Of a stretch of DNA of 41,016 bases, positions 6,349-34,496 are shown piece after piece. The stretch comes from Spirulina sp. (GTDB lineage Bacteria > Cyanobacteriota > Cyanobacteriia > Phormidesmidales > Phormidesmidaceae): NCBI GenBank assembly GCA_044070495.1, contig JBIPSI010000040.1:1-41016 (forward strand), read 5' to 3'. Each line of letters opens with the position of its first letter. Positions within the stretch are counted from its first letter, which is position 1. A program made the position numbers and the translations under genes. The notes beneath the pieces were generated by a model. It had not been told where the DNA came from and made no database searches. It was given only the letters and a program-made list of their open reading frames with translations.

Positions 6349-6355
6349 TCAAGAA

Positions 6356-7586: not shown

Positions 7587-7621
7587 AGGATTAGATGGGG
7601 TGTGAAATCAGTCCCAGGACA

Positions 7622-11191: not shown

Positions 11192-11247
11192 CGGTAATGT
11201 TCTAGACCTGTGTATGACAAGCCATACACAGGTCTAGAACATTACCG
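11192..11247. repeat. Perfect 25-bp-stem palindrome made of two IS1-like ends
   Basis: CGGTAATGTTCTAGACCTGTGTATG-acaagc-CATACACAGGTCTAGAACATTACCG. Confidence 0.85.
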
Positions 11248-16138: not shown

Positions 16139-16205
16139 AAGAAAAGGATATTCAAAATTTTGAGTTTTGAATTTTGAATTGATCTCCCCCGTCTTCCCTC
16201 TCCCC

Positions 16206-16727
16206 ATGCCCCCACTAGAATCCCCCCCAACTACCCCCTACCTCGCTGCCGCTGACCTCCTGGCGGGCAGTCAGGTGGTGCATGATGTGGAGATTCCGCC
16301 GGAGGTGTTGCAGCCGGGGACGCGGGGCGTGGGCGGACGGGTGCAACTTCGGCCTTTGAACCTGGCGACGATGACCCTAATTGCACGGGCGGCGCGGGAG
16401 GATAGCAGTCTGGTACCGCTGTTGACCATTAAGGAAGCGGTGGTGGAGCCGACCCTGACCCTAGATCAGGTGCGGCAGATGCATGTGGGGTTAGTGCATT
16501 TTTTGGTGGGGCGCATCAATGTTATTTCCGGCTTGAGTGAAGATGGCTCGGCGATCGCCTCGGCCCTCAATTCCTCCCTGGGGCACACCCACCTGATGCT
16601 GGCCAAGCACTTTGGCTGGACGCCGGAACAGGTGAGCCAACTTACCCCCGGTCAGGTGGCGGTCTACCTGGCGGGGATCGAAAAACTGCTGGCCCTAGAA
16701 GCGGCTGAAGGGAGGGCAACCCCATGA
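16206..16727 (+). CDS. Tail assembly chaperone-like protein with fused gpE'/gpT-like C-terminal module
   Basis: Position after tube; VQLRPLN motif; C-terminal LAKHFGWTPEQVSQLT. ATG 16206 preferred over TTG 16167, which lies in a TTTTGAA repeat. Confidence 0.65.
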   Translation: MPPLESPPTTPYLAAADLLAGSQVVHDVEIPPEVLQPGTRGVGGRVQLRPLNLATMTLIARAAREDSSLVPLLTIKEAVVEPTLTLDQVRQMHVGLVHFLVGRINVISGLSEDGSAIASALNSSLGHTHLMLAKHFGWTPEQVSQLTPGQVAVYLAGIEKLLALEAAEGRATP

Positions 16728-17791
16728 CGCTGAATCCCACCCGGCAACTCTTGCAAACGGGCGATCACCTACTGCGCCTGACCCGCCAGTTACATCAAAG
16801 TACGCCCCCATCCGGCCTTCTGCACACCTACCAAGCCCTCACCCTAGATCCCCTCACCCGGCTGGAGTACCAGCTTCAGGGTCAAAATGCCGACGAGTTG
16901 ATCACCCTGGCCTCTGCCCGGTGGACGATGGGGGAGACAGGGGTGATCGCTCCTACCGCTCCGACGGTTCCTCCCGCTGCTCCAGCAGTTTCCCCGATGA
17001 GTCTCCCTGGAGCACAAAAGCACCTCGCCAACTCCGCCTTGGCTGATCAGGCTGGGTTTCCCTCCCTCCTTAGGCCCCAGCCCATTGGGCGTTCCCTGGA
17101 AAGCTTGGGTGGAGGCAATGAACCTGCTGTTGCCCCTTATCCTCTCTCACGGTCAGCAGGAACCGGAAGCCAAAGCCCCCTGCTGGCAAAACCCAAGGTA
17201 GACACGGCGGCATCCCCCCCAGCCCAGCCCCTTTCGGACGCTTTTCCCCATTCCCCTATCTCTCCCTCTCTCCATCCCCCATCCCCTTTATCTCCGTCCC
17301 CCCTCCGCTTGGTGCAGGGTCGCCACCAACTCGCTGCCCTACTCAATACTCACCTGCCGCCGCTGCCGACCGACCCTCCATCCCCGGCGTTCCCCGCCGC
17401 CTTCCCCGGCCATGAGGTCAATCCTGATGAGTTGCCTATCCAACCGGGTGTCCCCGCCTCTCCGTTACCCCCTCTGTCCAATGGCATCGCGGCAGCACCG
17501 ATTGCTGTCCCTATGCCCATGCGCCATTGGGAACCGATTGCCCCCACGGGGGTGGATCGTCCTTTTACAGATGGGGATGCAGTAATTGATCCATCTCTAG
17601 CCGGAGAAGCGAGCCAAGCGGGACTGGATGCGGGAGATCAACCCTATGAGGAGCACCCGCTGACCTCTCCCCTACCGACCCCGGCCTATGCACCGGATCA
17701 TCCGGCCACTCTGGAGGCGCTGGTGGCGGCGATCGCCGAGCGTCTGGAATATGACCACCTGCGACTCTACGGCACGGGAGGGGCACGCTGA
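16724..17791 (+). CDS. Pro-rich low-complexity protein in the tape-measure gene position
   Basis: Start and stop overlap both neighbours; helical N- and C-termini around a Pro/Ser/Ala-rich middle; function inferred from synteny only. Confidence 0.55.
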   Translation: MTLNPTRQLLQTGDHLLRLTRQLHQSTPPSGLLHTYQALTLDPLTRLEYQLQGQNADELITLASARWTMGETGVIAPTAPTVPPAAPAVSPMSLPGAQKHLANSALADQAGFPSLLRPQPIGRSLESLGGGNEPAVAPYPLSRSAGTGSQSPLLAKPKVDTAASPPAQPLSDAFPHSPISPSLHPPSPLSPSPLRLVQGRHQLAALLNTHLPPLPTDPPSPAFPAAFPGHEVNPDELPIQPGVPASPLPPLSNGIAAAPIAVPMPMRHWEPIAPTGVDRPFTDGDAVIDPSLAGEASQAGLDAGDQPYEEHPLTSPLPTPAYAPDHPATLEALVAAIAERLEYDHLRLYGTGGAR

Positions 17792-18387
17792 TGGCGGTCG
17801 AATTGGGGGGCGTCACCCTTTCATTATTGACGGGCATCACGGTGGCAGAGCAGGCTCGCATTGTGCATCACAGCGTGCCGGGGATGGCGGGCGATTTGGC
17901 CCAAACCCTGGGGAGGCCGTCGGTGGTGGTGACGCTGGAGGGCATTTTTTACGGGGCCACAGCAGCGGCGGATTTGGCGCAACTGCGGGCGGCACACCTG
18001 GCCCACGAACCGGTGGACTTTTTCACCGAGGCGATCGGTGAGGGCTACTTCACCCAGGTGCTCATCGCTCACTTGGCAGTGGCGCAGCGGGCCAACTTTC
18101 CCGATCAGTTCGACTTTTGTTGCCAGGTGGTGGAGTATGTGGAACCGCCAGAACCGGCCTTGGCCTCGCCCTTGGGGGGGATTGATGCCGATCTGTTGGC
18201 GGAGGCCGGAGCCTTTATGGACACGGTGCAAAACACTCTGGCCGAGGTATCGGCGCTGACGGACTTGATCGCCAACGTGCCGGATTTTGGCAACCCTACC
18301 GAAAACCTGAATCAAATGTTGGACGAATATACCAGCGTGGTGGATGGCGGAGTTGCGGTTCTGCAAGGCATTCGGAGTCTGTTTTAG
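17791..18387 (+). CDS. Baseplate-proximal tube initiator (Mu DNA-circularisation N-terminal / P2 gpU-like)
   Basis: RIVHHSVPGMAGDLAQTLGRPSVVVTLEG...F-VEY pattern followed by a helical tail. Confidence 0.7.
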   Translation: MAVELGGVTLSLLTGITVAEQARIVHHSVPGMAGDLAQTLGRPSVVVTLEGIFYGATAAADLAQLRAAHLAHEPVDFFTEAIGEGYFTQVLIAHLAVAQRANFPDQFDFCCQVVEYVEPPEPALASPLGGIDADLLAEAGAFMDTVQNTLAEVSALTDLIANVPDFGNPTENLNQMLDEYTSVVDGGVAVLQGIRSLF

Positions 18388-18415: not shown

Positions 18416-21400
18416 ATGGGAATTCTTCAAAGCCTACCCGATTCATCCCAACTCGCCACGATCGGCAGCGGGGCCACGCAGGATGTGGGCACGTTGTTGA
18501 GCAGCTTGGGCCGTCTGGCTGAAGGGGGCACCGATTCGCCCCTTGGGTCGGTGGTGCAAGCGTTGCAGTCCCTAACCACCCATCTGGATATTGATGTCAG
18601 CGGCCTCACGGAACAGTTGCCCCAAGCCATCACCGTGATCCAAAATGCGCTGCCCGCCGACACCCTGGAGTATGTCGAGGATTTGCAGACCGCCTACGAT
18701 ACCGCGCGGCAGTTTTTAGCGGAGAGCGCCATTGCCGAGCAAATTCAGGCGGGGGGTGATCTGCAAGCGGCGGCCCTGGCGGTGGTGGCCGATGCCCTGC
18801 GGCTGTTTGACGGTCGCCTGACACAGTTGACCACCCAATTGCTGCCCAGCGATGCCCTCACCCAGGTAGAAGCGGTGTTTGCCCAGTTGGAGGCGTTTCA
18901 GGCAGCGGTGCCCACCCAGCCAGAGGCGCTCCTGCCGTTTTTGACCGATAACCTGATTGGGGTGGCCCCTGACCTGTTGGCGGTGCCCCTCAGCCAGGTC
19001 AATGCCGTGTATGCCCTGGTTGGCCCCCTGAGCCAGCCGGAGCCGGTGGAGGCCGCCCAGGCGGTGATCGCTACCCACTTTGCCAGCGTGCTGGCCACCC
19101 TCAACGACTTTGATGCCACGGACACCGCCGCCTACACCCAACTGCAAACCCAGCTCACGGCGTTAGAGACCGCATTAGACCAGCAGGTGACGGCGATCAC
19201 CGCCCTCTATGATGCGGTCGAAACCCAAATCACCGAATTTGACGACACCGCCCTGCTCACCCTCTACCGGCAGAGCTTAGAGGCCATTACCCTACCACCC
19301 GTCTTTTCTCCGGCGCAGGCGATCAACAGCGTGGTGGCGGTGCTAGAGGAACTCATGGGTCGCCTGCACCTCTCCTTGGGGGTAGACGACCTGACCGATC
19401 GCGTCAACCACCTGAGCGACACCATTCGCCAGACCTTTCTCAATTCTGGGTTGGGGCAAATTCGCCAAACCCTGCGGGGCTACCTAGAGGAGATTCAAGG
19501 GGCCATCGAGAACATTCCCACGGAGGTCATCCAGGCAACCGTCGTGGGAATGTTAGAGCGGGTGCGCCAGGAACTCGATCACCTGGGTATTACCCAAATT
19601 GAGGCGCAAATCACCGCCGCCTTTACCGCCGCCGAAACCTTTGTCACCGATACCTTTAACGAGGGGCTGCAAGGCACCGTGCGCACTGCCTTGGCGCAGC
19701 TCCTCAGCGAAATTCGCAGTTTGCCCGTCGCCGACCTGATTAACGAACTGACCCGCATTCTCGACGAACTCAATCGCCTGATTCTGGAGTTCAAAGCGGC
19801 CCTCAGCGGCTACATGGAAGAATTCCGCACTTTTGTTGCCCAGCTCGATCAGCTCAGCTTCAAACCCCTGAGCGATGAGGTGGTGCAGGAAATTGAAGCC
19901 CTGAAGGCGCGACTGGCGGCGATGGATCCCACGGCGTTGTCAGATATTGAGAAGTTGGCCCTGAAAGCGGCACTGGTGGTGCTGGAAGAATTGGATCTTG
20001 ATGCCCAGGTAGTTACCTTGCTGAACCAAGGCTTTGGCGAGGCGCAAACTCAGGTGCGGGGGCTACTGGGGGATCTCACTGGGTTACTGAATCGCCTGCG
20101 AGATCAGGTGAACAATGTGAATCCGCAAACCCTACTGAAGCCTTTGTATGACCTGCTCGATCAGGGGGTGGCCCAGGTCAATCGCCTCAATGCCAATCTG
20201 CTGATGGGGCCGCTCTATACCCAGCTAGAGGAACAGGCGGCGCGACTGCAAACCCTGTCGCCAGGGCAGTTGCTCGACCCCTTGCAAAGTCCCTATGACC
20301 AAATGCTACAGGTGGTAAACCGCCTCAACCCCGATCAGTGGGTGGCCCCCCTGCACGACCTCTATGCCTACATCGACCAACTGATCAGCTATGTGGATAT
20401 CACGCCCCTGATGGAGCAGTTGGAAACCCAGCGTCAGGAATTGTTTGCCAAGGCCCGTGAGGCGATCTTGAGTGGGCTGGATGCAGTGAACTTGCCCGCC
20501 CCGCTCGATCAGTTTTGGGCAGCGATACGCACGGTGCTGGGGGGCTTTACCGATGCCATCTTTGGCGACCCCGAAACCGAGTTACGGCAACTGTCCATTG
20601 AGGTGCGATCGCAGTTCCGTCTGAGCAGCCTCTTCACCCCGCTGGATGCGGTGTTTGACCGCTTGATTGGCCTTTTGGATCAGGTGCCCCAAACTCCCCT
20701 GGTAGACACCCTCAACGCCATCCGCGAAGGGATCGGCATCGCCCTCCACAGCCTAGACCCGATGGTGGTGCAGCAACGGTTGCGCCAGGGCCAGCAATGG
20801 TTGGAAAGCTTGAACCCAGCCGGTCGCTTCAGCACCACCCTGCAACTGCCCCAAGTGCAGGCGCAATTTACCCTACAAGTGGCCGGGGCTCCGGCGGGGC
20901 AAGCCGCCGCGATCACCACCCTCACAGCTCAAATCACAACCCTGGCGGGCGAGTTTGGCCTGGGGCGAGCAGGCAGTCCCTTGAGCCGGCTGGCCCAGCG
21001 CCACCAGCAACTCATGACGACGCTGCGCCACAAAATCAACGGCCTCAACCTAGACGCCGTCAAACCCGCCTACGCCCGCCTAAAGGACAGCCTAGAGCAG
21101 CGCCTGCCCGACTTTTTGCGCCTGCCCACGCCCCTCACCTATGGCGATGTCAAAGCCGGACTCGCCAGCCTGCGCCCCGCCGCCCTCACCCAGCGCCTTG
21201 ATCGCGCGGTGGATCGCTTCCTACAGCAGTTGGCTCCGCTGGAGGCCGCCCTAGAACCTGCCGTCAACGGATTTTTTGCCGGACTGCGGGACACCCTGAT
21301 GCTGATTAATCCCCTCACACTGAAGGATGCGGTGGCCGATATTTACGCCACGGTGCGATCAAAGGTGCGCATTCTTGACCCGACGGCGCTGGCCGATGCC

Positions 21401-21793
21401 ATTCGCACCAATGCCCTAGAGCCGCTGTTGTCACCCCTGGAGGCGATCAATCCCACGGCTATCAAAGCTCGGTTGGATCACCTGTTCAGCATCATGGTGA
21501 ACACGGTCAAAACTGGCGTCAAAACCCTACTGGATGACATTGCCCAGGTGGTCGATCAACAACTCCAGGACATTCGCACCGCCATTGTCACCCTCATTGA
21601 AGGGGTGGAGGGCAGCATCGACACCGCCACCCAGACGATTCAAGCCATCATTGCCGAAGTAGAGCAGTTGATTTTTGTGGAGCTGTTAGAACGACTCAAC
21701 CGCGTGATTGACAACCTGGGGGTTAGCTTTGATGCCGAAACCCGGCGGGTGGTCAACGCCTTTGAAGCCATGCTCAATGCGGCCCCTGTGTAG
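18416..21793 (+). CDS. 1125-aa amphipathic alpha-helical repeat protein (tape measure or cargo)
   Basis: Leu/Ala/Gln/Asp-rich with recurring L-[NDS]-P-x-x-L-x-x-P-L units; no enzyme motif seen. Confidence 0.6.
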   Translation: MGILQSLPDSSQLATIGSGATQDVGTLLSSLGRLAEGGTDSPLGSVVQALQSLTTHLDIDVSGLTEQLPQAITVIQNALPADTLEYVEDLQTAYDTARQFLAESAIAEQIQAGGDLQAAALAVVADALRLFDGRLTQLTTQLLPSDALTQVEAVFAQLEAFQAAVPTQPEALLPFLTDNLIGVAPDLLAVPLSQVNAVYALVGPLSQPEPVEAAQAVIATHFASVLATLNDFDATDTAAYTQLQTQLTALETALDQQVTAITALYDAVETQITEFDDTALLTLYRQSLEAITLPPVFSPAQAINSVVAVLEELMGRLHLSLGVDDLTDRVNHLSDTIRQTFLNSGLGQIRQTLRGYLEEIQGAIENIPTEVIQATVVGMLERVRQELDHLGITQIEAQITAAFTAAETFVTDTFNEGLQGTVRTALAQLLSEIRSLPVADLINELTRILDELNRLILEFKAALSGYMEEFRTFVAQLDQLSFKPLSDEVVQEIEALKARLAAMDPTALSDIEKLALKAALVVLEELDLDAQVVTLLNQGFGEAQTQVRGLLGDLTGLLNRLRDQVNNVNPQTLLKPLYDLLDQGVAQVNRLNANLLMGPLYTQLEEQAARLQTLSPGQLLDPLQSPYDQMLQVVNRLNPDQWVAPLHDLYAYIDQLISYVDITPLMEQLETQRQELFAKAREAILSGLDAVNLPAPLDQFWAAIRTVLGGFTDAIFGDPETELRQLSIEVRSQFRLSSLFTPLDAVFDRLIGLLDQVPQTPLVDTLNAIREGIGIALHSLDPMVVQQRLRQGQQWLESLNPAGRFSTTLQLPQVQAQFTLQVAGAPAGQAAAITTLTAQITTLAGEFGLGRAGSPLSRLAQRHQQLMTTLRHKINGLNLDAVKPAYARLKDSLEQRLPDFLRLPTPLTYGDVKAGLASLRPAALTQRLDRAVDRFLQQLAPLEAALEPAVNGFFAGLRDTLMLINPLTLKDAVADIYATVRSKVRILDPTALADAIRTNALEPLLSPLEAINPTAIKARLDHLFSIMVNTVKTGVKTLLDDIAQVVDQQLQDIRTAIVTLIEGVEGSIDTATQTIQAIIAEVEQLIFVELLERLNRVIDNLGVSFDAETRRVVNAFEAMLNAAPV

Positions 21794-21804: not shown

Positions 21805-24800
21805 ATGCCATCGCCCCCATCCCTCCCCCTCACACCGACCGATCGCTCCCCTTCGGAGTCGGCGGCCCTGACGCGGTTGACAGCCCTGTTGGCCCAGCAA
21901 CAGCGGATGCAGGTTGAGATGGCGGATGATCGCCGCCGCACGGTGACGGCCCCCGATGGTAGCCAGAGCACCTACGACTATGACGATCGCGGCAATCTGA
22001 TCCACCTCACAGAACCCAACGGCGAACAGCGCCACTTTGCCTATGATCGCCAAAACCGCCTGACCCAAGCCACCCACAGCGACGGTACCACCACTCACTA
22101 CACCTACAGCGATGGCCCCCACAGCCGCCTGATAGCCATCCAAAACGGGGCGCGCCGCTACACCTTCCGTCACGACGCTCAGGGGCGACTGGTGCAAGCC
22201 CAGCAGGGTAATGCGGGCACGGTGGTCTACCGCTACGATGACCAGGGCCATGGGATCGAGGCCCGGACAGATTGGGTGTCTACGCGCACCGTTGACCCTC
22301 ACCCCCAACTCGACCAGGGGGAGGAGTCCCACGCCATCCACCAGACGATCAACGGTGTCACCCTGACGGCTACCTATGGCTACAACGCTGCCGGACAACT
22401 CACCACCCTCACCCTGCCGGGTAGCGATCGCCCCTTCCGCTTTACCTGGACAGCGGCTGAAGGGTGGCCGCTGGCGGTTACGTGGGACGACCAGCCCCTC
22501 GCCCAGTTTGACTATGGGCGATCGCAGAAAACCACCCACCTCCACTTCGCGAATGGCCTCACCGAAACCACCCAGGCCGACCCGATAGACAACCGCCCGA
22601 TGCAGCGTCAGGTGCGGCGTGGGGACGAAATTCTGTGGCAACGCACCCTCACCTACACCGAGGTGGGGCAGATTGCAGCGGATGGGGATCGCATCTACCA
22701 CTACGACGACGATGGCCGCTTGGTTCAGGTCGAGGCTGACGTGATCTCTAGGAACAAAGAAACTGGTCTGGGGCTACAGGCCACCTATCGCTACGATGCC
22801 GTCGACAACCGCATCGAGCACACCGATGCCCAGGGAACCTGGCACTACACCTACGGTACGCAAAATCGCCTGCACAGCCTCACCGCCCCCGACGGTCGCC
22901 AGCAGCAGTTTCGCTACGATGGGGCAGGCCGCCTGCGGTATCGGCAACAGCCCACCGGGCAATGGAGCTACCGCTACGACGATGCCCATCAGTTGATTGA
23001 GGTGCAGTATAAGGGCGATCGCTTGGCCCACTTCACCTACGACCATAAGGGTCGCCTGGTGCTCAGCCAAACCCACCGGGGGCAGCGTCGCTACCTGTAC
23101 GGGGCCGATGATGCCCTCCTAGCGATCACCGATTCGCAGGGTCAACCGATCTCGACCTTTGTGCGCACCCCGCTAGGGCTGCTGGCCGAAATTCGCTGGC
23201 ACCACGGGCAACCGACGATTTACTACAGCCACCACGATGACCAAGGCAGCCGCCATCTCCTCACCGATGCGGAGGGCAACGTGGTGACCCAGTTCGCCTA
23301 TGGGGCCTACGGGAGGCCTGAGCCCTGGGGTGAAGTCGGCACCGAAACGGCCACCCCAGGATCATCTCCACCGCCTGCCGTGGGGGACGCCCTTTATACG
23401 GGGCATCTCTACTTTGCGGAAATCGGACTTTACTACTGCCGTGCCCGCTGGTACGACCCCACCCTAGGCCGCTTCCTCACCCCCGATACCTACACCGGCT
23501 GCCCCGACGATGAACGGCTGGTGAATCCCCTCACGCCGGCCCATCGTCAATTTGCCGCCAGAGCAGACATTCTAGACCGCTGGTTGCAGGATTTTCGTGA
23601 TCGCAACCGCTACACCTATTGCCGCAACGACCCGGTCAACCAGGTCGATCCCACCGGGCACTGGTCCTTTGGCGGGGTGCTGCTGTCTATTTTGGGAGCG
23701 ATTTGGACGTTGCCCAACACCCTGATTGGGCTGGTGCTGGAAATTACCTGCTTAATTGGCGAAGTGATTCGCTGGATTGTGTGGCTGTTTAGCGGCGGTA
23801 ACCTCACTTGGGAAACGGTGGGCTTCGATGCAGCGGCCTCCAGTCACCTCAATGCCTTTGCCCTGGTGTTTGAAGGGGGCTGGCTAGGCTCGATGCCAAA
23901 CCAGTTGTTGGGCATCACCTTTGGCAATGTCTTCTTTGTGTACAAAAAGTGGCGCGACGAACCCGCCTACCAGGGGGAAGCGTTAGTCTATCCACCCGCT
24001 TACCATGGCCGGGTGGGCATTCCCCGAAATCGCACCCTCTACGAACACGAACTGCGTCATACCAATCAGTACGGCTGGTTTGGGCCTTTCTTCTTAATTG
24101 GCCTGCCCATTTGGGGCGTGTACGTCTGGGACGTCATCGTCAATGGCTACTTTAATGCGTGGCTGGAGCGAGATGCCCGTGCCCATTCCCAAGGGCCAAC
24201 GACAACAACGGTGCCCCCGGAACTGACCACCACCACACCCCCACCGACCATTCCAGAGCCAGAATTACCCGAACCTGAGGAACCCGAACCTGAGGAACCC
24301 GAACCAGAAGAGCCCTTGGACGATCTGGATGCAGCCACGGTGTACGGCGGCTATGCCCTTCGCCGGGGCGATCGCGACACCGGATTCCTTTACGCTGGAG
24401 CCTCCCGCACCGCCGCCGCAGGCGACCCCCTACCCACCGCTGGAGCCATCGGCTTTGTCCAGGAACTCCAGCAGGATTTGATCACCCTCGGCTTTACCCT
24501 CGTTGGCACGGCGGATGGGGACTTTGGTCGAACGGTGGAATGGGCCGTGCGGGAGTTTCAGGCCTACGCCAAAATGCCCCAACTGGCCGAGGAAGCGGTT
24601 CCCCCACCAGGGGTAACCACCGCCTACGAAGACCGCCTCAGCGCTATTGCCAACCCCACCCCCTACTCCGGCCCCGTGAGCGGCGTGGTCAACGACCCTA
24701 CCCGCGTGCTGATTAAACGCTGGGTAGCCAATCGCTGGCGGTGTCCGGTAGTGATCAGTGCCCGCCAGGTGACGGCGGGCAACCCCGGCGCAATTTTCAA

Positions 24801-26001
24801 TAACCACGCCAACATCTGGCTCCATAACGAAGTCACCAGTTCCAGCCCCCGCATGTATGCCCGCGACTTCAGCGGCTACTATGCGCTGCCCCCAGGACGC
24901 AATGCCAATGATTTACAGGTGGTGGGCGACTATGTCACCTACCTCAGTTGGGATGGGCCGCGTTCCCTGCCACCTAACCACACCTGGACTGAGGCGGAAC
25001 TGCTGCCAGAGTCTCTGATGGGCCAGCCGCTCACCAGCCTAACCGCCGCCCAGCGCTCCACCTACAAGGTGATTCGGGCCGTATCGGAGGTGGAATGTAT
25101 CGGCTTTTTTGACAGCGTCAACGCCTATGACAACGCCTTCATTTCCGTTGGCCCCTGCCACTGGACCCTGGGCATTGTCTCCGCTACAGGGGTGATGTCC
25201 GAAGGGGAACTCTGCGGCTATTTAGCCTACCTGCGCCACCACGACCCCGCCACCTTCCAGCAGGCCTTTGAGCACTTTGGGATGCGGGTAGATGAGGATT
25301 GGGTCGCCGCCGATGGTACTGCCAATGGTGCCCCCCTGTTCCAGAGCAGTTCCCGCAAGTATGCCGGGTGGGTCGCCCTTCAACAGGAAGACGGCAGCTT
25401 TGCCCGTCTGGCTTTTACCGAAGCGGAGGGCAATTACTTCAAGACCTGGCATTGGTTCTACCGCTTTGTGATGGCGGGTCGCACCCTGGCGGGGTATCGC
25501 CGAGGCATGGGGGATATGGCCCGCATCCGCCTGCGCGACATTGCCAGCACCCCCTGGAGTGCTGCCGCTGGGGTGCCCGCTGTACCCGACGGCAGCGGTG
25601 GTACCCGCCCCGCCACCCTGGGGGATGTGTACACCTCCGAACGGGCGATGGCCTGGTTGCTGCGGTGGCACATTCGCTTTCCGGCCCATGTGGTGTCGGG
25701 CGGCCACGAAGGCACAACGCTGCGGAATGCCTACCAACGGGCGGCGATTCCCCTCAGTGCCGGAGATCCCTCCACCTGGGGGGAGGCCCAGGAAACCGCT
25801 CTCCTGCAAGGACTGATCGACCAGGTACAGGCGGTGGGCAACAGTGGCTTCACCGACACGATGGAATACGTCCGCGATTGGCCCCGCTGGGCCGGGGGCA
25901 GCAACCCACGGGGGTTTACCCTCGACCCCACCATCGGCACACTGGCCACCACCCGCCATTCCTTTACCTTTGACCCCACCGGATTGCCCCCACCCCCTTA
26001 A
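21805..26001 (+). CDS. RHS/YD-repeat protein with TM/HExxH region, peptidoglycan-binding domain and putative muramidase domain
   Basis: YD repeats to about aa 500; RHS core GLYYCRARWYDPTLGRFLTPD...NDPVNQVDPTG (DPTG aa 615-618); HELRH at aa 748; PEEPE linker; LQQDLITLGF...DGDFG...AVREFQ; SEVE...FDSVNAYD...SVGPCHWT. Confidence 0.88.
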   Translation: MPSPPSLPLTPTDRSPSESAALTRLTALLAQQQRMQVEMADDRRRTVTAPDGSQSTYDYDDRGNLIHLTEPNGEQRHFAYDRQNRLTQATHSDGTTTHYTYSDGPHSRLIAIQNGARRYTFRHDAQGRLVQAQQGNAGTVVYRYDDQGHGIEARTDWVSTRTVDPHPQLDQGEESHAIHQTINGVTLTATYGYNAAGQLTTLTLPGSDRPFRFTWTAAEGWPLAVTWDDQPLAQFDYGRSQKTTHLHFANGLTETTQADPIDNRPMQRQVRRGDEILWQRTLTYTEVGQIAADGDRIYHYDDDGRLVQVEADVISRNKETGLGLQATYRYDAVDNRIEHTDAQGTWHYTYGTQNRLHSLTAPDGRQQQFRYDGAGRLRYRQQPTGQWSYRYDDAHQLIEVQYKGDRLAHFTYDHKGRLVLSQTHRGQRRYLYGADDALLAITDSQGQPISTFVRTPLGLLAEIRWHHGQPTIYYSHHDDQGSRHLLTDAEGNVVTQFAYGAYGRPEPWGEVGTETATPGSSPPPAVGDALYTGHLYFAEIGLYYCRARWYDPTLGRFLTPDTYTGCPDDERLVNPLTPAHRQFAARADILDRWLQDFRDRNRYTYCRNDPVNQVDPTGHWSFGGVLLSILGAIWTLPNTLIGLVLEITCLIGEVIRWIVWLFSGGNLTWETVGFDAAASSHLNAFALVFEGGWLGSMPNQLLGITFGNVFFVYKKWRDEPAYQGEALVYPPAYHGRVGIPRNRTLYEHELRHTNQYGWFGPFFLIGLPIWGVYVWDVIVNGYFNAWLERDARAHSQGPTTTTVPPELTTTTPPPTIPEPELPEPEEPEPEEPEPEEPLDDLDAATVYGGYALRRGDRDTGFLYAGASRTAAAGDPLPTAGAIGFVQELQQDLITLGFTLVGTADGDFGRTVEWAVREFQAYAKMPQLAEEAVPPPGVTTAYEDRLSAIANPTPYSGPVSGVVNDPTRVLIKRWVANRWRCPVVISARQVTAGNPGAIFNNHANIWLHNEVTSSSPRMYARDFSGYYALPPGRNANDLQVVGDYVTYLSWDGPRSLPPNHTWTEAELLPESLMGQPLTSLTAAQRSTYKVIRAVSEVECIGFFDSVNAYDNAFISVGPCHWTLGIVSATGVMSEGELCGYLAYLRHHDPATFQQAFEHFGMRVDEDWVAADGTANGAPLFQSSSRKYAGWVALQQEDGSFARLAFTEAEGNYFKTWHWFYRFVMAGRTLAGYRRGMGDMARIRLRDIASTPWSAAAGVPAVPDGSGGTRPATLGDVYTSERAMAWLLRWHIRFPAHVVSGGHEGTTLRNAYQRAAIPLSAGDPSTWGEAQETALLQGLIDQVQAVGNSGFTDTMEYVRDWPRWAGGSNPRGFTLDPTIGTLATTRHSFTFDPTGLPPPP

Positions 26002-26046: not shown

Positions 26047-27090
26047 ATGCCCCCCCTCCGCCCCACCTTCACCCTCACCATCGGCACACTGCAAACCAGC
26101 AGTGATCGCCCCGTGGCCGGTCTCACCTACCTCACGGTTGATCGCGATATGGACAGCCCTGGCGATGGGCTGCGCCTAGGGCTGATGGCGCGATCTGGCA
26201 TCCAGGTTGGGGATGCGATCACCCTAGCCCTCGGCCACGATGGCGAGAATCAGGCGGTATTTGCGGGAACGGTGGCCCGCCTCCTACCCACCATTGCCGG
26301 GGTGCAGGTGCAGGGCATCGGCAAGCTCAACGCGTTGGCCACCTTCCACACCGCCCAGTTCTACGACAACCAAACCGCTGGCCACATTGCCCGCGACCTG
26401 ATTCAGCAAGCCGGGTTGACCGCAGGCACCCTCGATAGCGGGCCAACCCTGCCCCGCTACGCCGTTGATCGCCGCCTCAGTGTCTATGGCCATTTGCGCC
26501 AGTTGGCCCAGCGCCTCGGCTACGAGCTGTACGGCGATCGCAACGGGAACGTGATGTTCCACGGGCTGGGCGCTGCCGCCCAGTTGGACCGTGGCCTGGG
26601 GGGGGGCTTGGGGGGCTTGAGCAGCCTAGCCGGGGGGGCAACCCATTTGATGTTTGGGCACCATGTGCTCCAGGCCCAGGCCATCCAGCAACGGGCTCCT
26701 GCGGGCCAAGTCACCGTGGGGGGCGAAAGCCCCATGTCGCGCCAGGGAGACCCCACCGCCCACTGGCTCGCCACCGCCGACAACAGCCCCACGGGCACGG
26801 CGGGCCAGGGCCATCCCACCCGGCTGATCGTCGATGGGCTGGCGAGGACACGGGATTTGGCGGATCGCTTAGCCGCCGGAGTCAAGGCCACGGGGGATCG
26901 CACTACCCACCGTCTCCAGGTGCGCGTGCTGGGGCTACCCCGCCTTGACCTGGGAGACCCCCTGCAAACCCAAGCCCTACCGGATACAGGACTTAACGGC
27001 AGCGGCTATGTGCGATCGTTATGCCACCGCTTCGGCGAGGGCAGCGGCTTTACCACCGATCTCACCCTGGTGGTAGGAGGAGGGGCATGA
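26047..27090 (+). CDS. Baseplate hub (gp27 / P2 gpD-like)
   Basis: LGHDGENQAVFAGTV, LRQLAQRLGYELY, LGLPRLDLGD, GYVRSLCHRF...GFTT pattern. Confidence 0.85.
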   Translation: MPPLRPTFTLTIGTLQTSSDRPVAGLTYLTVDRDMDSPGDGLRLGLMARSGIQVGDAITLALGHDGENQAVFAGTVARLLPTIAGVQVQGIGKLNALATFHTAQFYDNQTAGHIARDLIQQAGLTAGTLDSGPTLPRYAVDRRLSVYGHLRQLAQRLGYELYGDRNGNVMFHGLGAAAQLDRGLGGGLGGLSSLAGGATHLMFGHHVLQAQAIQQRAPAGQVTVGGESPMSRQGDPTAHWLATADNSPTGTAGQGHPTRLIVDGLARTRDLADRLAAGVKATGDRTTHRLQVRVLGLPRLDLGDPLQTQALPDTGLNGSGYVRSLCHRFGEGSGFTTDLTLVVGGGA

Positions 27091-27761
27091 CCAACCTGGC
27101 CGCCATCATTCAGCGCATCGTGCAGCAGGAGCTCGCCCACCAGCGATCCAGTGAGTTGGGGGTGGTCACCGAGCTTTTTCCCCACACCACTGCCGATGAT
27201 AACCACAACTACGAGGCCAGTGTGCGCCTCAAACACGACGGATTAGACCTACCCAAGGTGGCCATCGCCGTCAACCATCTGGGGGTGGCCACCCCGCCCA
27301 ACGTGGGGGATTTGGTACTGGTGCAGTTCATCAATGGCGACCTCAATCAGCCCGTGATTACCGGACGCTTTTACCACAGCGATGCAGCCCCCCCCCTCCA
27401 CACCGCCGATGATCTGTTGTGGGAGCAGCGCGTTGCCAACGACAACACCCTCAACCACCTGCGCTTCACGGCGGACGGTACCATCTGGCTGCAACGGGAC
27501 GTAACCAAGCCCGAAGACAACAGCGAGGCCAAAACCAGCCTCAAAATCGATGGGGCTACGGGGGATATCGAACTCAAATCGGGAGCCGTCACCGTCGCCA
27601 TCACCCATGATCAGTCGATTGTGATTACGGATAAAAGCGGTAACTCGATTGAAATGAGCGACGCAGCATTCACCTTAACGTCCAAAGTGCCTTTCAAAAT
27701 CGATGCCTCCGGCCAATCGTTAGAAATCAAGGCCAACACCATTGACTTCAACAAGGGGTAG
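27087..27761 (+). CDS. Central spike (gp5 / gpV OB-fold plus short beta-helix)
   Basis: ATG 27087 overlaps the hub stop; LGVVT, PPNVGDLVLVQFINGDLNQPVITGRFY; ends IDFN. Confidence 0.9.
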   Translation: MTNLAAIIQRIVQQELAHQRSSELGVVTELFPHTTADDNHNYEASVRLKHDGLDLPKVAIAVNHLGVATPPNVGDLVLVQFINGDLNQPVITGRFYHSDAAPPLHTADDLLWEQRVANDNTLNHLRFTADGTIWLQRDVTKPEDNSEAKTSLKIDGATGDIELKSGAVTVAITHDQSIVITDKSGNSIEMSDAAFTLTSKVPFKIDASGQSLEIKANTIDFNKG

Positions 27762-27765
27762 CGAC

Positions 27766-28272
27766 ATGGGCAAAAAAATTGTGGTGCAAAACGATGCGGT
27801 GGAAGGGACGGATAAGCATAACGTCATGGGTGATGCGACGAATCCATCGCCGCCGCCGCCCAGTATCCCAAGTACGGTCTGGGTGGCCGACTTTGACTAT
27901 GTGGGCAAAATGACCGATGGCCTCAGCGATTTCGTCCACATTAACGGGCAAGCCATTGCGTTGAAAACCAGCAAAAGCTCCCTCAACCCTGGGGAAGATG
28001 TCGCCCCCACGGGAAAACACAGTGGCGCTCAAGGCAAAACCTTTGTGCCGCCTGCCCCGCCCCCCTTTCCGGCAACCCAAGCCAATTTGACCATCACCGA
28101 TCCCATTGGTGATGGAAAACCCAATCTGGGGGCTGGCAGCAGGTTTGTGTCCATCGGGGGCACGGCGATTTTGCTAGATGGGGATCGCATCGATACCTGC
28201 GACGGGCTCAGCGTACCCGGTAACTCAACAGTCTCAGCGGCCAATCAAGATTTTGTGTCCTGTTCAGAGTGA
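27766..28272 (+). CDS. PAAR-like spike tip protein
   Basis: Follows the spike; SDFVHING, GSRFVSIGG...LLDGD...TC, QDFV repeats like PAAR strands; His and Cys candidates for a metal site; Pro-rich loops. Confidence 0.65.
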   Translation: MGKKIVVQNDAVEGTDKHNVMGDATNPSPPPPSIPSTVWVADFDYVGKMTDGLSDFVHINGQAIALKTSKSSLNPGEDVAPTGKHSGAQGKTFVPPAPPPFPATQANLTITDPIGDGKPNLGAGSRFVSIGGTAILLDGDRIDTCDGLSVPGNSTVSAANQDFVSCSE

Positions 28273-28308
28273 GTGTCCTATTCGGAGTCAGTGTCCTATT
28301 CGGAGTCA
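28273..28308. repeat. 18-bp tandem duplication covering the RBS of the gp25 gene
   Basis: GTGTCCTATTCGGAGTCA twice (28273-28290, 28291-28308). Confidence 0.9.
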
Positions 28309-28314
28309 GTATTT

Positions 28315-28737
28315 ATGGAACGTGACGTCCTCTTTGGCCAAGACCTGCTGCTGCACAATCGCTTCGGTGGCCTAGATCTGGGTAGCGACGGCAATCGCGA
28401 CCTGGGTTTGGCCACGGGTTACGACAACGCCATCCAAGCCCTCACCCTGCGGCTCCGGGTGCGCCAGGGAGAACTAGCCCCCCTGGGCTGGCCCACCTAT
28501 GGCTCGCGGCTACACGAACTGATTGGCACCCCCAACACCCCACCCACCCACCTCAAGCTGATGGCCTATGCTCGCGCAGCAATCACCGCCGACCCTCGCG
28601 TTGCCGAAATTGTGGACATCCAAACCCAAGTCATCCCTGGCGAACGAAACACCGTGCGCCTACTGATGGACATTCGCCTGATAGATAGCCCGACCCCTCT
28701 CAACCTGGTGTTTGACCTCAACCTGGAGGCAGCATGA
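28315..28737 (+). CDS. gp25/gpW-like baseplate wedge (sheath initiator)
   Basis: NAIQALTLRLRVRQGEL...YGSRLHELIG...DPRV; ATG 28315 has GGAG RBS. Confidence 0.9.
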   Translation: MERDVLFGQDLLLHNRFGGLDLGSDGNRDLGLATGYDNAIQALTLRLRVRQGELAPLGWPTYGSRLHELIGTPNTPPTHLKLMAYARAAITADPRVAEIVDIQTQVIPGERNTVRLLMDIRLIDSPTPLNLVFDLNLEAA

Positions 28738-30458
28738 TTGACCCCGGCTTTCCCTTTTCCGACACCCATTCCTACCAAAGCCTGATCGAATCCCTAGAAG
28801 ATCAACTGCGGCTGGGGGTTGAACAACCGGCCCAGCACACCTTTGTGGTGAATGCCAACGCCACCTATGAGTTTCCTCAGACCGTCGAAGCCATCCAGGA
28901 AGTGCGGGAAAACAAACTGATCCAACCCCGCATTTTTCTGCCCGATGAAGACTATCGCCTTGTGAACCAGCGCCGCCTCGTCTGGCAAAACCCCCCGGCG
29001 GATGGCACCCGCCTAATCGTGCGCTATACCTACCGAGAACTGCCCGCTGGCCTCACCGACTTCAACCCTGGCAGCGTTGTCGGCACCCTGGTACGCGCCT
29101 TTGCCCGCGAACTCAAGCTGCTCTACGGGCAGATGGACGAAGCCTACCGCCGCGCCTTCATCGACACCGCCGAAGGGGTCGCCTTAGATAATGTGGTGCG
29201 GCTGCTGGACGTAGAACGTAAGCGGGCCGAAAAGGCCCAGGGCCACGTGGTGTTTACCCGCAAAGACACCACCCAGGCCGTCACCATTCCCCAGGGCACC
29301 CGCCTAGCCGATACCCAAAGCCAGGAGTTTCTCACCCGGCACAACACCCTGTTCCCAGCGGGGGAAACCACCCTAGCGGTGGCCATCGAAGCGGCAACCC
29401 CAGGGCCAGCGGGCAATGTCGCCGCCCATACCATCACCATCATGCCCACCCCCCTACCAGCCCTAGGCAGCGTGGAAGTCACCAACCCTAACCGCCTGCA
29501 AGGGGGGCAAAACCCTGAGGCCGATGGCCCCCTACGGGAACGGGCCAAATTTGCCGTCGAGCGATCGGGCAACGCCACCCTCAACGCCATCAAATATGCC
29601 GTCCTGGAACTCGAAGGGGTGGATGAAGTCGATGTGCTGGATCAGAGCATGGATGCGGCCATTCCCCTGGGCGAAATTCGAGTCCGCTACGCCAGCGACC
29701 ACAACACCCCTGAACTCCAACGGGCGGTGGAGAGCGTTGTCCAAGACACCCGTGCAGCGGGCATTTTGGCCCAAGTGGGCAGTATCAGCCGCATTTTGGT
29801 GTCCGGCAGCTTCTATCTCATCCCTGAGTCTGGGTTGGTGGAGGGTGCGCCCAATCGCTTTATGCAGCAGGTACAACAAACCATCAACGGTCTGGCCATC
29901 GGCGAACCCCTATCTGTTCGCCGTCTGATGGCTCTGGTATACGGCATTCCAGGACTAGCCGAGGTCGCCGATGCCCAACTCGACGCCATCCGTGACGGCA
30001 GTCCTGCCGCCATTACCGACCCATGGCTGACCGCCCCCACCGAACTGCTGCGGGTGGGCGATGTGACGGTCAAGCTACTGACGGGTCTTTCCGTCACTCA
30101 GTCCGTGCGCGAAGGCACCGACAACAAAATTACCCTGCAAGTGCTGGAACCCCCCGAAACTCCGGTGTTGTTTCGCAACTTCACCCTCGACCTCAGCCTC
30201 ACCTTTATGGCCACCCTCCGCCGCGCCCCCGACCAACCCCCCGAACGGTTCCTCACCCTGCCCCAGTCCCTCTCTTTTCGTAATCACCGCAACCGCACCC
30301 TCACCCTGCCCGACAGCGCCCTCCTGTTCAACCCCGAAACCGGACGCGGCTTTCGTCCTAATGACCACGCAGCCACCGTTACCGTCACCCTAAGCGCCGC
30401 CGCCTACCCCGGCTTAGCCACCACCACCACCACCATCACCCTACCCATCACCCCCTAA
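28734..30458 (+). CDS. Baseplate J/gp47-like wedge protein
   Basis: TDFNPGSVVGTL, FIDTAEGVALD, IPQGT, PGPAGNV, GGQNPEADGPLRER. Confidence 0.92.
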   Translation: MIDPGFPFSDTHSYQSLIESLEDQLRLGVEQPAQHTFVVNANATYEFPQTVEAIQEVRENKLIQPRIFLPDEDYRLVNQRRLVWQNPPADGTRLIVRYTYRELPAGLTDFNPGSVVGTLVRAFARELKLLYGQMDEAYRRAFIDTAEGVALDNVVRLLDVERKRAEKAQGHVVFTRKDTTQAVTIPQGTRLADTQSQEFLTRHNTLFPAGETTLAVAIEAATPGPAGNVAAHTITIMPTPLPALGSVEVTNPNRLQGGQNPEADGPLRERAKFAVERSGNATLNAIKYAVLELEGVDEVDVLDQSMDAAIPLGEIRVRYASDHNTPELQRAVESVVQDTRAAGILAQVGSISRILVSGSFYLIPESGLVEGAPNRFMQQVQQTINGLAIGEPLSVRRLMALVYGIPGLAEVADAQLDAIRDGSPAAITDPWLTAPTELLRVGDVTVKLLTGLSVTQSVREGTDNKITLQVLEPPETPVLFRNFTLDLSLTFMATLRRAPDQPPERFLTLPQSLSFRNHRNRTLTLPDSALLFNPETGRGFRPNDHAATVTVTLSAAAYPGLATTTTTITLPITP

Positions 30459-30463
30459 CCCCC

Positions 30464-30490
30464 CACCCTTCACCCTTCACCCTTCACCCC
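30464..30490. repeat. CACCCTT heptamer tandem repeat (STRR-like)
   Basis: Three full units plus one partial unit between the two wedge genes. Confidence 0.75.
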
Positions 30491-32005
30491 ATGCACTACA
30501 AAACCGCCAAACTCCTCAACCTCTTCCCCGATGCCTACGCCACAGGAGATTCGGCGGCGACGCTTTACCAGCTCTTAGATGCCCTGGGGGCAGAGCTGAT
30601 GGAGGCGGATGATGCTATCAAGGTGCTGCTGAAATCCCACTGGGTGGGCTACGCCGAGGGCCGATCGCTGGATGGATTAGGATCCGCCTTTGGGGTGCAG
30701 CGGCGACGGTTGCGGCGGGGGTTGCGGCTGTTTAGCCAGGGCCTAGGCTGGGTGCCGTTCCTCGACCGCAGGGAAATGCCCGACCGCCTCTTAGGCTATT
30801 TTCGTGATCGCCAATATCCCCTCTCCAGTCAGATCCAAGTCGTGGTGCAAGAACCCAGCTTTCGCTGGCTGGTGGAAGATGCCGGGGATCTTCGCGCCTA
30901 CGCCATCCGTCGGGAAACCGATGCCACCAGCGGCGACGAACGGTTGCAGGTGTATCTGGTCAGCGAAACCGACGAGGCCTTTCGGTTGCGGCTCAAATCC
31001 ATTATTCGGATGCTGGCGGGGGGTGGCACACGATCAGCCATTCGCGGCGCAGTACGGGCGGCCCTGGGGATGCCCTACGACTTGGCACAGCTCAACATTC
31101 CCCCTCGGTTTAAGGCGTTGCAGGAGGCCATCGACCAACTCATTCGCATCGAAGAATTCTCCCCAGAAGTAGACCGCCTGATTGGCAATCAGATCGTTGA
31201 AGTAGACCAAGCCAGCCAGATCACCCTTGCCGTCGAGCCGGATTCGGTGTTGCAGGTAGTGCCCCAAATTCGCTGGACCTTCACCCAAGGGGGCGGCAGA
31301 TTGCTCAGCCTAGAACGGCTCGGTTCAGGAGGAGCCGGGGTCAGAACCCTCGAAACCTTCCTGATGCCCGAAGGCTCTACCCTGGTGCTGTCCCCCGAAG
31401 CCGATGGTACCCTTAGCGCCCGCCTAGATGGCTACAGCGTGAAAGACGCCTTCACCAACCTCGATGGCAGCACCCCGGCTCGGCTGCCGGAAATTCCCCG
31501 CGAACGCAGTGAATGGCGGTTTCGGGCGGCTGGGGGGCAGTGGGATATCAGCACCTTTGACGATGGCGACATCTTTGAGCTACCCACCTTCATCGTCGAG
31601 CTGCGGTGGGAACGACGACAACCCCTCACCTTTGATGTGTTCGTCCCCTATTTCTTTGAGGCGGCGGTGCAGCAGATCCAGGAACAATACGGCTACCAGC
31701 AGGACATTTTTATCTTTGAAGGGCTACCCCGCGAACATCTTCAGGCCGTTGTCAACCAAACCAAAGCCGCTGGGGTGCGGGGAAATGTGCAGTTTTCCCT
31801 CAACTTTTTTGACACCCACGATCAACAGGAACGGTTCCGCCTTGAGGGAATCCATACCACCACAGAAAACCAAACCCTTGCCGACACCCTGGAAGTGGGC
31901 AGCTTTAATCGCGAAATGGAGAATCATGAAATGGTCGAGACTTTTGTGATTGGCGGTGTTTTTGATGTATCTACCTTTGACGGCTCCTTTGGCTTTCAAG
32001 AGTGA
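30491..32005 (+). CDS. Second baseplate wedge protein (gpI/gp7-like)
   Basis: LLNLFPDAY...LLDALG, AEGRSLDGLG...ETDEAFRLRL...GGT, TKAAGV, and two D-x-STFD motifs. Confidence 0.75.
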   Translation: MHYKTAKLLNLFPDAYATGDSAATLYQLLDALGAELMEADDAIKVLLKSHWVGYAEGRSLDGLGSAFGVQRRRLRRGLRLFSQGLGWVPFLDRREMPDRLLGYFRDRQYPLSSQIQVVVQEPSFRWLVEDAGDLRAYAIRRETDATSGDERLQVYLVSETDEAFRLRLKSIIRMLAGGGTRSAIRGAVRAALGMPYDLAQLNIPPRFKALQEAIDQLIRIEEFSPEVDRLIGNQIVEVDQASQITLAVEPDSVLQVVPQIRWTFTQGGGRLLSLERLGSGGAGVRTLETFLMPEGSTLVLSPEADGTLSARLDGYSVKDAFTNLDGSTPARLPEIPRERSEWRFRAAGGQWDISTFDDGDIFELPTFIVELRWERRQPLTFDVFVPYFFEAAVQQIQEQYGYQQDIFIFEGLPREHLQAVVNQTKAAGVRGNVQFSLNFFDTHDQQERFRLEGIHTTTENQTLADTLEVGSFNREMENHEMVETFVIGGVFDVSTFDGSFGFQE

Positions 32006-32717: not shown

Positions 32718-32776
32718 CTCCACACTCCTTCGCCAGCTTCGACATCACGCTACCCTTTATTGTCTAGGAGTCCGCC

Positions 32777-34165: not shown

Positions 34166-34199
34166 TCGTACAAGTTTGTCTTAATATCGAACCAATTCC

Positions 34200-34445: not shown

Positions 34446-34496
34446 CGCCCAACCCTCTCTGACCCTACGGACCGCCCCACCCGGAGACCTCTGGCT

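Follow-up and report, generated by a model that had tools for sequence, protein, structure and literature searches.

How can an Rhs shell of half the usual size carry a C-terminal region larger than itself, and what might such a protein do among tail structural genes? The question is raised by a protein of Spirulina sp. (GCA_044070495.1) encoded in the 41,016-nt stretch analysed here, contig JBIPSI010000040.1, positions 1 to 41,016 (hereafter, the window). A preliminary description had placed the end of its RHS part at the DPTG motif (residues 615-618), with about 780 residues following, and both points are confirmed in the 1398-residue open reading frame. The other part of its premise fares less well: a cargo exceeding the shell is a minority feature, and at 70 of 90 loci the protein stops directly behind a domain of 20 kDa.

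The tail operon and the place of the Rhs gene

The window contains the following genes:

13672..15606, + strand, tail sheath (family matches)
15638..16138, + strand, tail tube, not of the T4-gp19/Afp1 type (without a PF06841 match)
16167..16727, + strand, probable tail assembly chaperone (assigned by position; conserved in 50 loci; no family match)
16724..17791, + strand, low-complexity protein with a conserved C-terminal helix, possibly plug-like
17791..18387, + strand, tube-initiator-like protein (weak DNA_circ_N match)
18416..21793, + strand, all-helical tape-measure-like protein, 1125 aa (weak PHROG tape-measure matches, E 5e-8 to 1e-5)
21805..26001, + strand, half-shell Rhs protein P0001, 1398 aa, 156 kDa
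26047..27090, + strand, baseplate hub, gp27-like (VgrG_rel, E 1.7e-8)
27087..27761, + strand, spike, OB fold and short beta-helix (domain matches)
27766..28272, + strand, PAAR-like tip of a type common to only one other locus (L004)
28273..32005, + strand, gp25-like, Baseplate J and gpI-like wedge genes
32232..35276, + strand, conserved fibre-region genes and a conserved unknown gene of 259 aa (the latter in 26 of 27 carrier genomes)
35295..40445, + strand, 1716-aa subtilase (S8), last gene of the operon

The product of 16167..16727 we take, partly from a motif, to be a probable chaperone. The sheath has no close solved relative (best E 2e-4). The tail tube has a median identity of 72% across loci, and a homologue of it matches Phage_tube_2 weakly (E 4e-4). 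The helical protein is 1128-1146 residues long in 48 complete copies and has a 23-residue proline period, a conserved C-terminal helix and no transmembrane segment. The subtilase is present in 8 of the 12 downstream regions fetched, and the contig ends 570 nt past its gene.

The RHS gene, with AGGAG 8 nt 5′ of its ATG, lies between the helical-protein gene and the hub gene, as the preliminary description had stated, and this order recurs across nine phyla, in 72 of 73 testable loci on the upstream side and in 83 of 83 on the downstream side. The gene closely adjoins the hub gene in most loci, with a papain-like open reading frame between the two in four of 83. Named isolates among the carriers are Pyxidicoccus caerfyrddinensis, Actinopolymorpha pittospori, Humibacillus xanthopallidus, Pelomonas candidula and Azohydromonas aeria.

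The operon resembles eCIS (Afp, PVC, MAC, AlgoCIS; dbeCIS lineages) and R-type tailocins in having sheath, tube, hub, spike, PAAR, gp25, Baseplate J and fibres and in being capsid-less. In particular, no capsid, portal or terminase was found in the window or among 39 flanking open reading frames of four carrier genomes; a single locus has an integrase, roughly 2 kb ahead of it. A T6SS membrane complex and ClpV were likewise not seen in the window, no operon gene matches a holin or endolysin, and PADLOC gives no match for the Rhs protein or the helical protein. Unlike canonical eCIS and tailocins, the operon has a split hub and spike, a fixed Rhs gene, a terminal subtilase of about 1700 residues and a non-PF06841 tube, PF06841 having no match at the window locus and being matched only on contig C7 of the source genome. 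Moreover, the window has no Afp15 AAA ATPase and no match to Afp16 (DUF4255/Pvc16_N), although its remote counterpart may be gene 34497. Twelve regions downstream and two upstream likewise showed no conserved ATPase family; the Walker-A pattern is a weak test for an ATPase, finding none in the eCIS region on C7 either.

A full-text literature search, covering journals outside subscription, gave among the matches listed no paper describing a family of tail operons with a half-shell Rhs protein, and the word Rhs is absent from the main text of PMC8213781, PMC11297309, PMC12210884, PMC6899500, PMC11126660 and PMC13277306. The accessible part of one survey (PMC12210884) states that clusters were explicitly excluded if they had a fibre and a tape measure and lacked an ATPase; the operon would thus belong to a lineage of tail particles that eCIS surveys can overlook.

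Extent, fold and cleavage signature of the half-shell

The Rhs protein is organized as follows:

21850..21900, + strand, N-terminal amphipathic helix, aa 16-32 (homologue alignment; helix 16-32 in the AF2 model)
21901..23661, + strand, YD-repeat half-shell and RHS core, aa 33-619, 46 strands (AF2 model, structure superposition)
23497..23604, + strand, family-specific insert of about 35 aa, PDDxRL...Q...R...WL (D568, D569, R571 and W593 invariant in 81 of 81; helix 581-595 in the model)
23647..23658, + strand, DPTG motif, aa 615-618
23662..24189, + strand, constant post-cleavage domain, aa 620-795, 20 kDa (family conservation; zincin-like)
24190..24342, + strand, Thr/Pro/Glu-rich linker, aa 796-846 (sequence; variable in the homologue alignment)
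24343..25998, + strand, optional add-on, aa 847-1398, peptidoglycan-binding domain and predicted lysozyme-superfamily fold (PF01471, AF2 model, structure search)

Pfam and NCBIfam match RHS repeats, Rhs_assc_core (507-619) and PG_binding_1 (885-925), and detect neither PAAR nor VgrG nor any other trafficking domain at the N-terminus; the N-terminus also has no transmembrane segment or cork and, judged by eye, no signal-peptide pattern, in agreement with the preliminary description. All complete homologues begin, in the alignment, with the helix at residues 16-32 (consensus EAxxRxExWL).

The half-shell is a conserved, genuine and intact unit across nine phyla. A lost 5′ part, which would have refuted the preliminary reading by its own criterion, was not found in homologous loci: ahead of the post-DPxG domain, 82 related proteins never have over 649 residues, and 507-659 codons separate the upstream stop from DPxG in 68 of 70 loci. 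A search among longer proteins yielded one orthologue, P0175, in which the extension is C-terminal. The modelled shell (residues 26-619) superposes on YenC2 residues 4-690 (Z 32.2, rmsd 3.2, 522 aligned) and on Salmonella bongori Rhs residues 788-1420 (Z 35.9, rmsd 2.7, 528 aligned), and therefore corresponds to the whole of TcC, or to roughly the last 60% of a cage of the T6SS Rhs type. The statement that Tc cages use twice as many residues accordingly holds for TcB and TcC together, but not for TcC alone. In sequence, the RHS protein is nearer to the Rhs proteins of T6SS than it is to TcC. In the FastTree tree the window's protein sits on long branches, and we therefore claim no donor.

With TcC (YenC2, 4igl; TccC3) the protein shares the shell extent, an RHS core with an aspartate pair, and cargo behind DPxG. 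It differs in having a constant cargo, hypervariable in TcC, and in its N-terminal helix, core insert and contractile-tail setting; no TcA translocator is present among the window genes. With T6SS Rhs effectors (RhsA 7q97, RhsP, Tse5, Tse15, VgrG-Rhs 8qja) it shares the YD shell (Z 27-37), the autoprotease motif and the tie to a contractile machine. Unlike them, it has 46 strands, versus 76 in RhsA, without the complete cocoon of about 1000 residues and its N-terminal plug; it also has a constant C-terminus, and no PAAR, VgrG, TMD, cork or immunity gene.

The residues of the proposed autoproteolytic signature are invariant in 81 of 81 homologues: specifically, R548, D561 and D615 are the putative aspartyl autoprotease residues, and D561, P610, D615 and G618 belong to the aspartate pair and PxxxxDPxG motif. 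In superpositions, residue 619 coincides with the point where the modelled shell ends in YenC2 (690), Tse5 (1168), RhsP (1131) and Tse15 (1395), and the cut is predicted between H619 and W620. Two features would count against self-cleavage: the residue directly after DPxG is H in 79 of 81, versus the usual W/L/F, and the ~35-aa insert sits between the two putative catalytic aspartates. Some structure alignments extend to model residue ~680, which hints that the constant domain lies near the shell cavity.

The constant domain and the optional add-on

The region behind the motif, previously treated as a single cargo of about 780 residues, comprises three separable parts, of which only the first 176 residues are constant in the family. 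This constant domain is the most conserved part of the protein in 81 homologues (mean identity 67%, versus 39% for the shell). It is hydrophobic, with helices at 623-663 and 761-780, and its HExxHxxQ motif (748-755) and E788 suggest a zincin-like domain: H748, E749, H752, Q755 and E788 are each present in 76-78 of 81. Some small proteins that stand alone are homologues of this domain (hhalign 99.5%). It has no match in Pfam, PHROGs, PDB sequences, or annotated phages or plasmids, and only unnamed Atlas matches, with scores under 0.9. In structure searches with the RHS model, the shell took up the matches; among viral folds, a single phage protein of 152 aa, unnamed, came up (TMt 0.61), which may match the constant domain and serves as a lead only. 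No immunity gene accompanies the RHS gene at the operon loci, and with a constant C-terminus this fits poorly with a polymorphic-toxin role.

According to the accessible part of PMC3482391, HExxHxxQ-E is the signature of the DUF4157 (PF13699)/PVC-metallopeptidase family, and membership in this family was first favoured. Profile comparison did not support it: hmmscan gives no PF13699 match of the constant domain at E<=5, two small homologues match at only E~0.1, and hhalign against 26 DUF4157 regions reaches 30% over 16 columns, versus up to 34% for shuffles. The likeness to DUF4157 eCIS cargo (Sle1-Sle2 and Tme of Streptomyces) nevertheless extends beyond the signature to a constant peptidase with a variable enzyme, here after the predicted cleavage, and to adjacency to a tape-measure-like gene. 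The differences are the hydrophobic helices, the missing PF13699 profile match, an Rhs half-shell in place of a disordered loading sequence, and an operon without Afp15 ATPase and T4-gp19 tube. One protein with RHS and a C-terminal PVC-metallopeptidase is noted in the available part of Zhang 2012.

Of 90 loci, 70 lack the add-on, and 17 have it in three unrelated kinds. C-terminal extensions span 400-820 aa; that of the window's protein, about 600 aa with its Pro linker, is replaced by other enzymes in some relatives. Add-ons differ even between close relatives: L053 differs from the Rubrobacter group, and L035 has none, though it lies within a clade with 99% support with L039 and L042. The AF2 model of the add-on (pLDDT 97) points to a lysozyme-superfamily fold. 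In particular, the add-on has VIA matches to the SleB N-domain (Z 11.8) and a GH46 chitosanase (Z 8.8, rmsd 4.1, 194 aligned), with many lysozyme-family entries below; resemblance to the lysozyme fold is of intermediate strength (Z 7-9; best Foldseek E 0.25), and Pfam has no match for this part. The candidate catalytic acid, E1095, is conserved in at least 90% of 68 sequences. The add-on also occurs on 66 of 79 proteins without the Rhs-linked domain.

Possible roles of the half-shell

The reading we favour, with about an even chance of being right, is that the protein is a cargo cartridge, an Rhs shell in the form of an open cup, conserved and dedicated to a contractile tail that has no capsid and works without a loader ATPase. 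The cup would shield the hydrophobic helices of the constant domain inside the producer. With upper half and cork missing, the C-terminus would be exposed, and the 60-kDa wall hydrolase, where present, would hang outside and would therefore need no enclosure. Self-cleavage at H619|W620 would release the constant domain, plus the enzyme if present, as a product with the classic eCIS cargo layout: a constant HExxH domain, and behind it a variable enzyme, in some lineages a swappable module joined through a Pro-rich linker. The constant domain would attach to the tape-measure-like protein or the baseplate core and be delivered upon contraction, the lysozyme-like module opening the target peptidoglycan. 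Against this, a cup of RhsA dimensions, 65 Å wide, should not fit a tail-tube lumen of about 40 Å, which makes the proposed attachment site less certain. There are partial precedents. The accessible text of PMC13277306 describes a small DUF4157 protein that joins tape-measure-like cargo to the tube initiator, and that of PMC9935623 describes would-be membrane helices shielded within the Rhs shell of mosquito SGS1. SGS1 has, as here, an Rhs/YD shell followed by hydrophobic helices, and teneurins have such a shell followed by an external domain; unlike the present protein, both are full-size eukaryotic shells with no tie to tail particles.

A wider claim, which we advance tentatively, is that of an undescribed multi-phylum lineage of contractile particles in which the Rhs half-shell replaces loading by AAA ATPase and disordered signal, the open cup being a chaperone that cleaves itself, brings a membrane-active metallopeptidase, with any enzyme fused to it, onto the particle, and lifts the size limit of a closed cage. 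The structure searches returned Rhs shells that form closed cages by themselves or with a partner, and incomplete Rhs genes have been read as remnants; an intact half-shell with constant cargo in nine phyla challenges both views. Its fixed slot in a tail operon points to an uncharacterised mode of particle loading. If the cup is the loader, it would offer a testable, ATPase-free way to attach large folded enzymes to a contractile particle.

The alternatives follow in decreasing order of probability. It is unlikely that the half-shell is completed to a closed cage, as TcC is by TcB, through a head-to-head homodimer, the helical protein or the hub. The shell does end where TcC begins, TcC requires TcB, the N-terminal helix is conserved, the hub gene is a close neighbour in most loci, and the accessible part of a preprint describes RhsP and RhsA dimers. 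A TcB-like second subunit, one of the options raised earlier, is nonetheless not found: the 97%-complete source genome contains no second RHS, full-length rhs or SpvB match, SpvB is absent from these loci and occurs in only 6 of 27 carrier genomes, and the window-type protein is the only Rhs-core match in 11 of 27. A closed cage would also give extensions of 400-820 residues no easy exit. Moreover, two 20-kDa domains are unlikely to fit one T6SS-size cage, because such a cage, in the available part of its description, has ~25,000 Å3 and encloses a toxin of ~16 kDa.

Quite unlikely is a teneurin-like structural role, in which the protein would stay uncleaved on the baseplate or spike as an appendage and present the protease and optional wall hydrolase at the business end. 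Teneurin plugs are uncleaved, the unusual H after DPxG would fit, the RHS gene lies among structural genes in all testable loci but one, and its median identity to homologues (44%) resembles that of hub (43%) and Baseplate J (39%). The invariance of both aspartates and the arginine speaks against it, as does distance correlation over 14 loci, where RHS tracks the structural genes less closely (Spearman 0.49-0.62) than these track each other (0.78-0.90).

We see little probability that the released zincin is a maturation protease kept in the producer, where it would process the producer's envelope or tail parts such as the tape-measure-like protein, with the hydrolase add-on aiding particle release. 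A constant domain is expected if the substrate is a fixed protein of the same system, and the missing immunity gene, the missing holin and endolysin and the second conserved protease (S8) at the operon end are in keeping with this. The need for an Rhs cup and the swapping of add-ons among close relatives would, however, be left unexplained.

Finally, a 5′-truncated or orphan rhs remnant is very improbable: short Rhs genes unable to envelop an effector are described as diversification cassettes in the accessible part of 10.1101/2024.02.26.582050, but here the start is shared and the frame intact across nine phyla, the extents are fixed, the sole longer orthologue is extended C-terminally, no full rhs exists in the source genome, and variable 5′ truncation behind a full-length rhs, as in an orphan cassette, is not what we find.

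A half-shell Rhs family in a tail operon

The ORF at 21805–26001, with a ribosome-binding site ahead of its ATG, encodes a 1398-aa protein. Family scans identify RHS repeats, an Rhs core (residues 507–619), and a peptidoglycan-binding domain (885–925), and no PAAR or VgrG; DPTG occupies residues 615–618. The gene belongs to a tail operon, in which neither head genes nor an AAA ATPase were seen, with the order:

sheath, tube, chaperone-like, low-complexity, tube-initiator-like, 1125-aa helical protein, Rhs, hub, spike
then PAAR-like tip, gp25, Baseplate J, gpI-like gene, fibre-region genes, 1716-aa subtilase

A protein search reveals homologues at 39–57% identity that start at the same N-terminal helix, and scans yield 95 loci (31 genomes, 62 metagenome contigs, and 2 IMG/VR contigs), many of them near-duplicates, such that locus counts are not independent. 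Named records come from Actinomycetota, Chloroflexota, KSB1, Acidobacteriota, Thermodesulfobacteriota, Myxococcota, Pseudomonadota, and Eremiobacterota, with one Cyanothece protein. The helical gene lies immediately 5′ of Rhs in 72 of 73 testable loci (the exception, L088, resembles a fragment), and the hub gene lies 3′ of Rhs in 83 of 83. In 68 of 70 loci, 507–659 codons separate the helical stop from DPxG; the exceptions are L029 (frameshifted) and L042 (788). At most 649 residues precede the post-DPxG domain in 82 collected proteins having it, and the only orthologue from a search of longer proteins, P0175, is extended C-terminally. Judged from these sequences, the half-shell Rhs is a family, not a remnant.

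A search of 24 same-genus genomes found no orthologue, and family scans place an IS4 remnant upstream of the operon, which thus seems patchily distributed and is probably mobile. The upstream DNA (1193–8593 and 11202–12396) contains, with this transposase remnant, a zinc-starvation-type cluster: two CobW GTPases, a ZnuABC-like transporter, porphobilinogen synthase, and a WD40 protein.

Shell, predicted cleavage site, and bipartite cargo

An AlphaFold2 model of residues 1–795, built with 81 sequences (pLDDT 89.8, pTM 0.80), has 46 strands before the end of the core, compared with 76 in RhsA (accessible text of PMC8765631). Residues 26–619 superpose on YenC2 4–690 (Z 32.2), and residues 16–619 superpose on S. 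bongori Rhs 788–1420 (Z 35.9). Strand count and superpositions together indicate that the modelled shell is a TcC-sized half-shell; the short shell of the preliminary description is thus borne out, its TcC size having gone unremarked. R548, D561, P610, D615, and G618 are invariant (81/81). The model predicts a cut at H619|W620, because residue 619 superposes on the position where the modelled shell ends in several Rhs and TcC structures. Two features speak against this cut: the +1 residue is H in 79 of 81 sequences, versus W/L/F in the published consensus as far as accessible, and the aspartates are separated by a family-specific insert.

The cargo behind DPTG is two separate things, a constant domain (residues 620–795) and an add-on (residues 847–1398). 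The constant domain is the best conserved part of the protein, with mean identity of 67%, versus 39% for the shell, the reverse of the pattern in polymorphic toxins. It comprises hydrophobic helices and HExxHxxQ...E (76–78 of 81), the signature given for PVC-metallopeptidase (PMC3482391). When its profile was compared with 26 DUF4157 regions, the motif alone matched, no better than shuffles did, and small stand-alone proteins matched at 99.5%; we therefore did not adopt DUF4157 membership and call the domain zincin-like. P0169, P0170, P0172, and P0174 are homologous stand-alone hydrophobic HExxH proteins (128–147 aa) with no family above cut-off. Five DUF4157 proteins are encoded elsewhere in the window's genome.

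The 3′ end is complete in 90 loci, of which 70 end after the constant domain, 3 extend 40–150 aa, and 17 carry a long module. The long modules comprise 4 window-type, 9 SH3 plus papain-like, and 4 whose motif is transglycosylase-like; weak Pfam matches and characteristic motifs underlie the latter two labels. Close relatives have differing add-ons. Cargo larger than its shell, as first described, thus holds for a minority of members, the window's protein among them, and the size paradox concerns an accessory part and not the family. The model of the window's add-on (pLDDT 97) pairs a PG-binding domain (Z 11.8) with a putative lysozyme-superfamily fold, whose match to GH46 chitosanase has Z 8.8 (Foldseek E 0.25). 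The add-on also occurs, nearly always C-terminally, on 66 of 79 collected proteins without the Rhs-linked domain. Present on many unrelated proteins, this module (24343–25998; related proteins P0015–P0090) is a mobile unit of the C-terminus, and no Pfam family matches its catalytic part. The SH3/papain-like module is fused to Rhs in Rubrobacter loci, is a separate ORF between Rhs and hub in four others (L013:14758–16134, L014, L017, and L040), and follows a degenerate zincin-like domain in P0165.

Proposed mechanism and novelty

The reading that we prefer, at about even chances, is an open-cup Rhs that shields a domain, cleaves itself, and hands a fragment to the particle; past the anatomy, we infer every step. 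In particular, the cup would shield the hydrophobic constant domain and leave its C-terminus free, the wall hydrolase would hang outside, and the self-cleaved fragment would pass to the particle. Analogues, as accessible texts describe them, are SGS1 (PMC9935623), Sle1–Sle2 (PMC13277306), and Tme (PMC11126660). The accessible text on AlgoCIS (10.64898/2026.05.27.728243) reports that loading requires a disordered N-terminus, with DUF4157 dispensable, and proposes use of an ATPase; no such ATPase is seen in the window operon, and the two Walker-A proteins in the 12 downstream and 2 upstream regions examined are an ABC exporter and RecD. Loading may occur in trans, since 24 of 28 carrier genomes (G000–G027) have a T4-gp19-type tube elsewhere.

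A cage completed by a partner is unlikely. TcC has a B subunit, whereas this Rhs has none; the window's genome (97% complete) has no SpvB and no other RHS repeat, 6 of 27 carrier genomes have an SpvB match, and the family's Rhs is the sole Rhs-core match in 11 of 27. An uncleaved structural appendage is less likely still; no test here separates these two from the open cup. A producer-side maturation protease, with the zincin-like domain acting inside the producer, is rather improbable, and a remnant is scarcely credible given the 649-residue limit and shared N-terminal helix.

The individual parts are known: TcC-sized shells, short Rhs genes (10.1101/2024.02.26.582050) and orphan TcC (PMC7861908), these two from accessible text, and an RHS–metallopeptidase fusion (PMC3482391). 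Their combination, in which a tail operon has as a fixed gene a conserved half-shell Rhs whose cargo is constant, is apparently new: we found no description in full-text searches (supplements and subscription papers may differ) or in the accessible parts of surveys PMC8213781, PMC11297309, PMC12210884, PMC6899500, PMC4122934, PMC8651086, and PMC11566945.

The particle

The window operon does not count as a canonical eCIS under the eight-gene core of PMC6899500 (accessible text); its tube has no T4-gp19 match, and its locus has no Pvc16_N match. It seems to represent a lineage of its own, tailocin-like in character. A separate canonical eCIS, with T4-gp19 tubes, Pvc16_N, and sheath, lies on contig C7 of the same genome (48000–58200). 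T4-gp19-type tubes occur in 17 of 40 relatives of the window's genome and 9 of 60 genomes in one carrier's family, versus 24 of 28 carriers, a comparison that uses stricter E cut-offs for the former two and ignores genome size and kinship.

The length of the helical protein (18416–21793) is tightly held, at 1128–1146 aa in 48 copies from different phyla; it has a proline period of 23 residues, conserved last 25 residues, and no membrane segment. It is consistent with a tape measure and could also be tape-measure-like cargo. The 12 downstream regions examined have in common only the 259-aa gene and, in 8 of them, the subtilase. This protein (35295–40445 in the window; 1630–1716 aa) is the last of the operon in those 8, and it was not found in the three actinobacterial regions and the one Eremiobacterota region; its long non-catalytic part matches no family. 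No head genes occur among 39 flanking ORFs in four genomes. The PAAR-like tip type (27766–28272) is common to the window and L004; in the eight other loci inspected (as at L003:14273–15516), the tip gene is of another kind and precedes an ~260-aa PKD/Ig-like gene, which the window lacks. An endolysin-like gene (L103:16228–17199) follows the last conserved gene of the Actinopolymorpha locus, and an integrase (L100:9150–10544) lies ~2 kb upstream of the Eremiobacterota region.
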